Assembly (NCBI RefSeq): GCF_963678635.1
Contig: NC_087064.1
Location: 46,113,437 to 46,177,436 of the forward strand
Reading direction: 5' to 3'
Source: Symsagittifera roscoffensis
Taxonomy: Eukaryota
DNA length: 64,000 nt
Positions 13,604 to 13,971 of the stretch are shown here, in pieces. The notes under the pieces are model-generated. The model did no database searches, had not been told where the DNA came from, and worked only from the letters and a program-made list of their open reading frames with translations. A program made the position numbers and the translations under genes. Position 1 is the stretch's first letter; each line of letters begins with the position of its first letter.

Positions 13604-13620
13604 CTTATCGTGCAGCCTTG

Positions 13621-13971
13621 TTATTTTCCTCGCTTCACCCCTTGATACATCGTTGGCCCGACCATCAGGGTCACCGTGTATACTTTGGTCATCCCCAGCA
13701 TGTCAAGCGTTGCCAACATCTGTGGCGTGGCAGCTCCAGCGAAACTCAAGATTCCCGTCTGCCAGTGCGATCGGATCCGGTTCAACACCCGCACCAGGCT
13801 GTCCCCTACGATTAGGTGAACCGCACCTTCTGGTACCCGGGGTGGCGCCAAGTACTGCACCCAGGCCGCATCATGAAAGCAGTCTCTCCTAGCTTTCTGC
13901 TCCGCACTCCAGTCCAGCCGATTATGCCTGTGGTACCTCCCCTCTGTATTCTTCTTATAACTCGAGATCAC
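13621..13971 (-). CDS. ORF3 SGNH/GDSL hydrolase domain, N-terminal part (block I HLIVGDSLV, block II SFAGAAT). It is out of frame with the rest because of a 1-bp deletion near 13693
   Basis: GDS motif; in-frame equivalents in copy 2 (HLIIGDSLVRDL...LGTNDVS) and copy 3 (HLIIVDSLV...GTIDVS...DGIHFD). Confidence 0.75.
   Translation of the reverse strand: MISSYKKNTEGRYHRHNRLDWSAEQKARRDCFHDAAWVQYLAPPRVPEGAVHLIVGDSLVRVLNRIRSHWQTGILSFAGAATPQMLATLDMLGMTKVYTVTLMVGPTMYQGVKRGK

Follow-up and report, generated by a model that had tools for sequence, protein, structure and literature searches.

The 64,000-nucleotide stretch of the Symsagittifera roscoffensis genome analysed here (the window; contig NC_087064.1, positions 46,113,437 to 46,177,436) carries three related long terminal repeat (LTR) retrotransposon copies, which we call copies 1, 2 and 3. 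An original prediction, made from the letters alone, had placed an SGNH/GDSL hydrolase domain at 13604-13971, within copy 1, and described it as embedded in an LTR-retrotransposon open reading frame (ORF). We find there a serine esterase domain of the SGNH (GDSL) type, of which this stretch covers the N-terminal half. The description of its surroundings was right but incomplete: the element has the Ty3/gypsy domain order gag, protease (PR), reverse transcriptase (RT), RNase H and integrase, and the domain is one module of a separate gene downstream of pol, ORF3, of about 2,950 amino acids (aa). We are highly confident of the identity and architecture of both domain and element. That the SGNH module of ORF3 aids the element is our preferred explanation as a whole, with a probability of roughly 60%. 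None of the three window copies is still functional; intact ones are found elsewhere, and in the family consensus the catalytic set is complete.

Read on the minus strand, the interval 13604-13971 corresponds to a 116-aa ORF (13621-13971), ...VHLIVGDSLVRVL...ILSFAGAATPQML...TVTLMVG, after which the domain passes out of frame. Three-frame translation places NDVSRGEARK, the continuation of TLMVG, in the neighbouring frame. The next ORF downstream (8780-13603, minus strand, 1,607 aa) starts ...ILLTICTVPYN... and includes ...STDGIHFDRP. SGNH blocks I, II, III and V are all collinear in copy 1, with block III split by the frameshift. The predicted coordinates thus capture the N-terminal half of the copy 1 domain and miss block V, which belongs to the ORF that follows. 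Behind the frameshift is the loss of one base from a Thr codon, GGGCCAAC compared with GGGACCAAC in L001, a 98.5%-identical element copy on another contig that served as the reference for copy 1 lesions; in longer context the window has GTCGGGCCAACGAT and L001 has GTCGGGACCAACGAT, which encodes VGTND. The restored Thr is the residue actually encoded by L001 and by the 99%-identical protein P0001. A second 1-bp deletion relative to L001, at ~13970, cuts the esterase off from a 359-aa ORF upstream.

With the one base restored, the 214-aa domain of copy 1 matches the Pfam family Lipase_GDSL_2 (PF13472) with an E value of 9.4e-10; its score of 39.7 bits exceeds the curated cut-off of 32.9 bits. 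The unrepaired ORFs of copy 1 give no Pfam match at E<=0.01, and the scores of 27.4 bits for copy 3 and 20.2 bits for the copy 2 remnant stay below the cut-off. PF13472 is precomputed on most of the 120 family proteins listed. A profile built from six family domains matches PDB entry 2hsj, a platelet-activating factor acetylhydrolase (PAF-AH)-like SGNH protein, across blocks I-V (E 1.2e-3); the third-best PDB sequence match of the same profile is the ORF1 protein of ZfL2-1 (4c1b), a zebrafish long interspersed nuclear element (LINE), over blocks I-III (E 0.09). An AlphaFold2 model of the domain, with a predicted local distance difference test score (pLDDT) of 67 and a predicted template modelling score (pTM) of 0.70, consists of five strands alternating with helices. 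At E<=1e-3 the model has 48 PDB matches, and every one is an esterase, acyltransferase or scaffold of the SGNH type, with template modelling scores of 0.45-0.58. The best fold match is PAF-AH Ib (1wab, E 4.7e-6), 2hsj is also leading, and the sialate O-acetylesterases 6njc, 7pzg and 6xpg are found among the matches at about 0.58. Drawn from the repaired Pfam match, the PDB profile match and the fold match, the SGNH assignment is secure.

The three copies carry different lesions in this domain. Collinearity of blocks I, II, III and V, predicted for all of them, holds for copies 1 and 3, whose domains are 64% identical in protein sequence, and fails for copy 2, from which block V has been deleted. 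A GDSL-like block I is likewise present in copies 1 (VGDSL) and 2 (IGDSL); in copy 3 it reads IIVDSL, the Gly having been replaced by Val with the Ser kept, a loss the prediction had passed over. What had been said of block III agrees with the sequence in each copy: TLMVG and NDVSRGE are parted by the single-base deletion in copy 1, GTNDVS is present within 29484-29507 in copy 2, and at 58312-58335 in copy 3 the block is degraded to GTID, with Ile in place of Asn. The further statement that only copy 2 retains GxND is literally true in the window but misleading, since copy 2 is the most damaged of the three and in copy 1 the G, N and D are all still present on either side of the 1-bp deletion. 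Copy 2 has a frameshift between blocks II and III, contains no DG(I/V)HF motif in any frame, and its domain ends at ~29330 at an internal ORF3 deletion. Compared with an intact relative, P0211 (2,432 aa), ORF3 of copy 2 jumps from ...AADFMN to WDVEELYSTG..., the last ~220 aa of ORF3, and it is because of this internal deletion that block V and most of ORF3 are missing. In copy 3 a stop codon follows directly after ...DGIHFDRP.

At E<=1e-3 a protein search returned 509 members of the family, every one of them from ENA assemblies (ERZ25878734 and ERZ25071366). Among the 143 domains with full coverage, 119 retain all five catalytic residues (Ser, Gly, Asn, Asp and His), and residue by residue the family keeps Ser in 155/160, Gly in 162/170, Asn in 180/183, Asp in 169/178 and His in 165/177. 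The profile match and the catalytic Ser and His on which the original prediction had staked itself were both found, the consensus retaining Ser, Gly, Asn, Asp and His. There are at least three element families, that of copies 1 and 3 (family 1), that of copy 2 (family 2) and a third type comprising P0274 and its relatives, which was found through a HMMER search of 1.84 billion representatives. Their domains are 33-42% identical and all keep GDS, G, GTND and DG(I/V)HF, with DGVHF in P0211; in P0274 the esterase is also followed by the second region of ORF3. Among the 150 matches listed from that HMMER search, which used a 1,035-position profile including full-length P0211, there were only family fragments, and JGI metagenome contigs scanned with the domain profile yielded no relatives.

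Between the domains of copies 1 and 3 the nonsynonymous divergence (dN) is 0.23 and synonymous sites are saturated. Families 1 and 2 have collinear ORF3s over the full length, at about 29-32% identity, compared with 56-70% for pol. Therefore ORF3 and its esterase predate the split of these two families. ORF3 evolves more quickly than pol, but its catalytic residues are constrained.

In copy 1 ORF3 is represented by four minus-strand ORFs between 15047 and 6170, which read as pieces of one gene. Set against L001, two of the three breaks prove to be deletions of 1 bp, and the junctions are read through by P0001, P0124 (2,168 aa), P0123 (2,271 aa) and P0399 (2,947 aa). The copy 2 family also has continuous ORF3s (P0211, and P0383 of 2,955 aa), and at a further locus, L002, a 2,432-aa ORF3 begins 475 nt beyond a gag-pol ORF that runs through 3,160 aa without interruption. 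ORF3 starts with a small helical region that is conserved, continues through a coiled-coil-like segment and a linker of low conservation, and reaches the esterase at about residues 380-590, after which come a Ser/Pro-rich linker and ~2,300 aa without recognisable domain. Heptad-like periodicity was detected ~130 aa upstream of the esterase, over a ~90-aa segment in family 1 and a ~60-aa segment in family 2. Beyond the esterase no Pfam domain and no env family were matched (E up to 10 / up to 1), and a PDB sequence search of P0123 found nothing past the esterase. A hydropathy scan of ORF3 revealed no signal-like N terminus and no hydrophobic 19-mer conserved between families.

A second, catalytically degenerate SGNH domain is possible further along ORF3. 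The candidate region (11861-12544) has a motif order resembling that of the esterase that is kept in families 1 and 2, and has no DxxH. Compared with the true SGNH profile by hhalign it gives a probability of 4%, which is not significant. A 775-aa structure model (mean pLDDT 37, and 50-77 over the candidate) has SGNH hydrolases as its best PDB matches, weakly (1fxw, E 3.4e-3).

Two other features of ORF3 were observed. In both element families there are ORF3 variants without the same ~330-420-aa segment (window about 8008-8997, minus strand); P0123 and P0211 differ in this respect from P0124, P0210, P0399 and P0383, and the 3' boundary agrees within a few residues. We rejected a spliced intron as the explanation, the boundaries in copy 1 not being GT...AG. 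The C-terminal ~590 aa (6170-7950, minus strand) contain Cys/His-rich motifs such as CPHPHA and HGECPCHC; they are the best-conserved part of ORF3, with 45% identity between families, and have no Pfam or PDB sequence match.

Copy 1 is complete. Its LTRs are 99.66% identical, the LTR ends are TGTAAC...GGCACA and the target-site duplication (TSD) is AAT. When the flanks of copy 1 (4371-4856 and 27507-27906) are rejoined they equal 38647-39529 and match the intact copy 2 LTR at 39115-39150; therefore copy 1 inserted in the 3' LTR of copy 2. Copy 2 (TSD GCC) is itself inserted in a LINE ORF1. Along the minus strand of copy 1 the Pfam matches run in the order zf-CCHC and PNMA, Asp_protease, RVT_1, RT_RNaseH(_2), Integrase_H2C2 and rve, and no BEL/Pao-specific family was matched in that scan. 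By its LTRs, TSD and domain order the element is assigned to the Ty3/gypsy type. Its gag-pol is broken into three ORFs, and intact relatives have a single gag-pol ORF of 3,160 aa (L002) or 2,544 aa (L003). The internal region of copy 1 measures 20.9 kb. The limit for a 'giant' transposon has been put at 20 kb (Arkhipova & Yushenova 2019, PMC6431247), and copy 1 passes it. The element is very abundant, with 90%-identity clusters of up to 1,465 members. Coordinates are collected in Table 1.

Table 1. Coordinates of the retrotransposon, its genes and its esterase domain in the window.
Feature	Position	Strand	Basis or detail
Copy 1, complete Ty3/gypsy-type LTR retrotransposon, 22,650 bp	4857..27506	-	self-BLAST, TSD
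5' LTR of copy 1, 884 bp	26623..27506	-	self-BLAST
3' LTR of copy 1, 884 bp	4857..5740	-	self-BLAST
gag-pol of copy 1, three ORFs	15587..23521	-	Pfam matches
gag-pol ORF: CCHC, PNMA-like gag, aspartyl protease, RT start	20072-23521	-	
gag-pol ORF: RT, RNase H	18521-20065	-	
gag-pol ORF: integrase H2C2 and rve, then C-terminal macrodomain	15587-18475	-	
Macrodomain, C terminus of integrase ORF, copy 1	15590..16000	-	phmmer against PDB
ORF3 of copy 1, ~2,950 aa if intact	6170..15047	-	continuous relatives
ORF3 pieces in copy 1	13968-15047, 13621-13971, 8780-13603, 6170-8773	-	four ORFs
Coiled-coil-like segment upstream of esterase, ~90 aa	14343..14609	-	proline-free, 58-62% charged or Gln
SGNH/GDSL esterase domain, copy 1 (RRDCFHDAAW ... 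FTLGPPP)	13250..13890	-	Pfam after repair and fold match
Block I LIVGDSLV, copy 1	13792..13815	-	nucleophile Ser codon 13798-13800
Block II LSFAGAA, copy 1	13729..13749	-	oxyanion Gly codon 13735-13737
Block III TLMVG(T)NDVSRGE, copy 1	13634..13671	-	Thr codon: CC left at 13655-13656; Asn 13652-13654
Block V DGIHFD, copy 1	13355..13372	-	Asp 13370-13372, His 13361-13363; outside flagged interval
Candidate second degenerate SGNH-like domain, VVIVAGSDF...SLPGAEL...LLLFAGMNDH...VLDEVL	11861..12544	-	motif order
Esterase blocks of copy 1		-	VGDSL / SFAGAA / G-(1-bp deletion)-ND / DGIHFD; extra frameshift upstream ~13970
Esterase remnant of copy 2	29331..29700	-	LIIGDSLV 29626-29649; LSFGGAS 29563-29583; MLGTNDVS 29484-29507; block V absent
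Esterase domain of copy 3	58087..58725	+	IIVDSL 58162-58185; LSFSGAA 58228-58248; MMGTIDVS 58312-58335; DGIHFD 58603-58620

The integrase ORF ends in a macrodomain, which gives the element an additional accessory domain of enzyme type beside the esterase. By phmmer against PDB it matches human TARG1/OARD1, an O-acetyl-ADP-ribose deacetylase, over 125-130 aa with an E value of about 5e-6; Pfam finds nothing there. The macrodomain is conserved in copy 2 (31304-32101, minus strand), in copy 3 (56332-56622, plus strand) and in L002. The literature searched yielded no paper on an LTR element in which a macrodomain is fused to integrase.

The window also contains an esterase of the LINE type, a 200-aa ORF at 3253-3855 on the plus strand with the blocks ADSQ, LPGA, GGND and DEVH. 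It scores 24.1 bits against Pfam Lipase_GDSL (cut-off 23.6) and lies just upstream of a PHD-type LINE ORF1. The esterase of the LTR element aligns with it by hhalign over blocks I-V, with a probability of 83.6% and an E value of 8e-6.

We infer that the esterase of ORF3 is probably catalytically active and that it is kept because it is helpful to replication of the element. A mechanism can be proposed tentatively, by analogy. The coiled-coil-like segment would multimerise the ORF3 protein, after the model of the esterase-type ORF1 proteins of CR1/L2-type LINEs. Binding and deacylation of a lipid or an acetylated substrate at a membrane would fall to the SGNH domain, and the esterase would help the particles of this env-less element in their assembly, trafficking or passage between cells. 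The module itself may have been taken from a CR1/L2-type LINE.

Several observations weigh against this interpretation. All three window copies are defective, so that nothing in situ is functional. Full-length ORF3 proteins score 31.4-31.8 bits with Lipase_GDSL_2, slightly under the Pfam cut-off, and confidence in the structure model is moderate. The coiled-coil-like segment was scored by a crude heptad script only. Between families the esterase is 33-37% identical per 100 residues, below the C-terminal ~400 aa (48-52%), and the ~2,300 aa of ORF3 that are unexplained could dominate its function. As to origin, the link to LINEs is unspecific: the best PDB sequence match is a bacterial PAF-AH-like protein and not ZfL2-1, and the LINE esterase in the window is only 23% identical to that of the LTR element.

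The alternative that survives best is that ORF3, as a fast-evolving multi-domain protein interacting with the host, antagonises host defence instead of serving the assembly of particles at membranes, with the esterase stripping an acyl or acetyl mark from a restriction factor or a signalling lipid, maybe together with the integrase macrodomain. Viral macrodomains counter ADP-ribosylation-based defence, and a TARG1/OARD1-like macrodomain in the same element is consistent with such a role, but the position of the TARG1 catalytic Asp is apparently not conserved in the alignment. The low identity of ORF3 between families (32%) beside that of pol is as expected for proteins in conflict with the host, although such fast evolution is equally explicable by relaxed constraint on linkers. 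Among the functions that Schneider et al. (PMC3905857) consider possible for retrotransposon esterases are depalmitoylation and the removal of acetyl groups from regulatory proteins or lipid messengers. Overall, we consider this explanation unlikely.

Very improbable, in our judgement, is that ORF3 is a surface glycoprotein standing in for env, whose SGNH domain would act as a receptor-destroying enzyme and remove O-acetyl groups from cell-surface sialic acids in the manner of the hemagglutinin-esterases of influenza C virus, coronaviruses and toroviruses. ORF3 does occupy the env position, downstream of pol, and sialate O-acetylesterases figure among the fold matches of the domain; the best of these matches, however, are the cytosolic PAF-AH Ib subunits. 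No viral hemagglutinin-esterase occurs among the 50 best BFVD fold matches, which are for the most part esterases and tail proteins of phages, plus a few proteins of giant viruses. Moreover, a signal peptide is missing, the families share no transmembrane segment, and by Pfam nothing resembling a fusion protein exists in the ~2,300 aa beyond the esterase.

Least probable of all is that the domain is a passenger, a piece of host gene or LINE transduced by chance, without a role and decaying, for although each window copy has inactivating lesions in it, a possible donor lies in the same window (3253-3855) and random capture of host ORFs by LTR elements is known (PMC5408684), the domain holds the same position in the collinear ORF3s of families 1 and 2, in P0274 of the third family the second region of ORF3 follows it, the domains of the three families are only 33-42% identical, most complete ones are catalytically intact, dN between copies 1 and 3 is 0.23 with synonymous sites saturated, intact full-length ORF3s exist beside intact gag-pol, and the in-window LINE esterase is too dissimilar, at 23% identity, to be a recent donor.

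Returning to an ORF3 that aids its element, a bolder form of the proposal can be stated. ORF3 would be a retroelement accessory protein of a new kind, a cytoplasmic, multimerising giant made up of an active SGNH esterase, a possible second degenerate SGNH domain and ~1,900 aa of novel folds. Together with the integrase macrodomain it would manipulate host membranes or dismantle acyl- or ADP-ribose-based defences, akin to the hemagglutinin-esterase and macrodomain proteins of RNA viruses, its esterase having been captured from the ORF1 of a CR1/L2-type LINE. It is doubtful that all of this holds, and we rate the proposal in this form as unlikely. If true, it would mean that modules are exchanged between retroelement classes outside rotifers.

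Further observations concern the element copies and their surroundings. Between the 5' LTR and gag, copy 1 has two sets of tandem repeats, ~26 copies of a 13-14-bp unit at 24725-25076 (TGTCCCAAGACTCC, plus strand) and 2.6 copies of a 70-bp unit at 25968-26148. Copy 3 (plus strand) has a 2.7-kb tandem duplication within pol, 47886-50560 and 50556-53267 being 93.7% identical, and a further repeat at 60571-61123 and 63446-63998. In rotifer, fungal and planarian LTR elements a dUTPase sits between PR and RT (PMC6431247). The corresponding interval of copy 1 (20800-21070, minus strand) gave a sub-threshold dUTPase-like Pfam hint (Herpes_ORF11, E 0.0065), which we dropped after a PDB sequence search of the region found nothing.

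The LINE into which the LTR elements are nested is split by them. The start of its Cys-rich PHD-like ORF1 (4005-4370, plus strand) apparently resumes at ~39533-40063, and its ORF2, encoding an APE-type endonuclease and an RT, follows at 40259-42901 (plus strand; Pfam Exo_endo_phos_2 and RVT_1). On the minus strand, a 383-aa ORF at 44571-45722 has a PHD finger at its N terminus (Pfam E 1.6e-4, marginally below the cut-off) and is probably another CR1-like LINE ORF1. Beside the intact element of L002, NUP50-like and MEIOB-like ORFs lie in AT-rich host DNA (18295-24473 of that locus); the MEIOB-like ORF has no close annotated homologue in a collection of 5.8 billion proteins.

To our knowledge, esterase activity has been enzymatically proven for a single retrotransposon protein, that of the LINE ZfL2-1. 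The element described here would offer a second, independent system in which to ask what a retrotransposon esterase does. Found in an abundant giant LTR element of another class and in another host, the module suggests that capture of esterases by retroelements is recurrent and selected rather than a curiosity of rotifers. The giant ORF3 and the integrase macrodomain are the more novel parts and hold the main remaining interest; we know of no larger post-pol ORF in a gypsy-type element than the ~2,950-aa ORF3. With them comes the question of how an LTR element can package 9 kb of additional coding sequence and what it gains by carrying it. There is also a consequence for genome annotation, in which such ORFs would otherwise be called host 'GDSL lipase' genes.

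Among known proteins, PAF-AH Ib and the bacterial PAF-AH-like proteins (1wab, 1fxw and 2hsj) are the best matches and have the same catalytic residues in the same order. They are only 16-19% identical to the domain, and are cellular single-domain enzymes outside mobile elements. SGNH modules recruited by a retroelement or a virus are seen in the Terminon/Athena elements and in viral hemagglutinin-esterases, in each case in a different class of element. The hemagglutinin-esterases are secreted or membrane-anchored, whereas ORF3 has neither a signal peptide nor a transmembrane segment. GDSL esterases have been reported in Athena/Terminon Penelope-like elements (PMC5408684, PMC6431247).

In size the closest parallel is Burro/GYPSM1 of planarians, one of the giant gypsy-like LTR retrotransposons (Grohme et al. 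2018; reviewed in PMC6431247). Like copy 1, Burro is of gypsy type and has an internal region of >20 kb, the length coming from added coding sequence and not from long LTRs. Its additional domains (BIR, BCL2-like, ankyrin, MATH and env-like) lie in a ~4,900-aa polyprotein upstream of PR, and no esterase is reported among them; in the element described here gag-pol is conventional except for the integrase macrodomain, and the extra capacity takes the form of a separate 3' ORF3.

In domain arrangement ORF3 resembles the ORF1 proteins of LINEs. Kapitonov and Jurka, in 2003, reportedly described esterase-type ORF1 proteins in CR1/L2/RTEX non-LTR retrotransposons. In these proteins a coiled coil, a loose linker and an SGNH esterase with a full catalytic set follow one another, an arrangement that ORF3, with its coiled-coil-like segment, appears to share, and the ZfL2-1 ORF1 protein (4c1b) has closely similar motifs (IIGDSIVRHV, FPGA and VGTNDT). 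As a rule a coiled coil and a linker of low conservation stand ahead of LINE esterases, which have been reported to be transposon-specific and monophyletic (Schneider et al. 2013, PMC3905857). For ZfL2-1, activity of the esterase has been shown, as has its binding to liposomes and acidic phospholipids but not to RNA, and the coiled coil dimerises (PMC3905857). The position of the module differs. In LINEs it forms ORF1, ahead of an APE/RT ORF2; here it stands downstream of pol and integrase in an LTR element with its own gag. LINE esterase proteins measure ~300 aa, whereas the module of ORF3 is trailed by ~2,300 more residues.

The nearest precedent is provided by the retrovirus-like Vesta LTR retrotransposons of bdelloid rotifers, in which ORF3 codes for a GDSL esterase/lipase that has kept its catalytic residues (Rodriguez, Kenefick & Arkhipova 2017, Viruses 9:78, PMC5408684). 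The novelty that the original prediction implied for an SGNH module in a gypsy-type element does not stand: the element carries an accessory-esterase ORF3 of a kind already published for LTR retrotransposons, and is not the first case. In both, an esterase ORF follows pol in an LTR element with the order PR-RT-RNase H-integrase and takes the place of env. A membrane role has been suggested for the rotifer ORF3 esterases, as a proposal only, and the Vesta ORF3s are described as having no coiled-coil or transmembrane domains (PMC5408684). Compared by description only, the S. roscoffensis element differs from Vesta in encoding a ~2,950-aa protein with a coiled-coil-like segment within 22.6 kb. 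Transposable elements make up <4% of the A. vaga genome according to the same paper (PMC5408684), and the copy number of the present element is far above that described for A. vaga.

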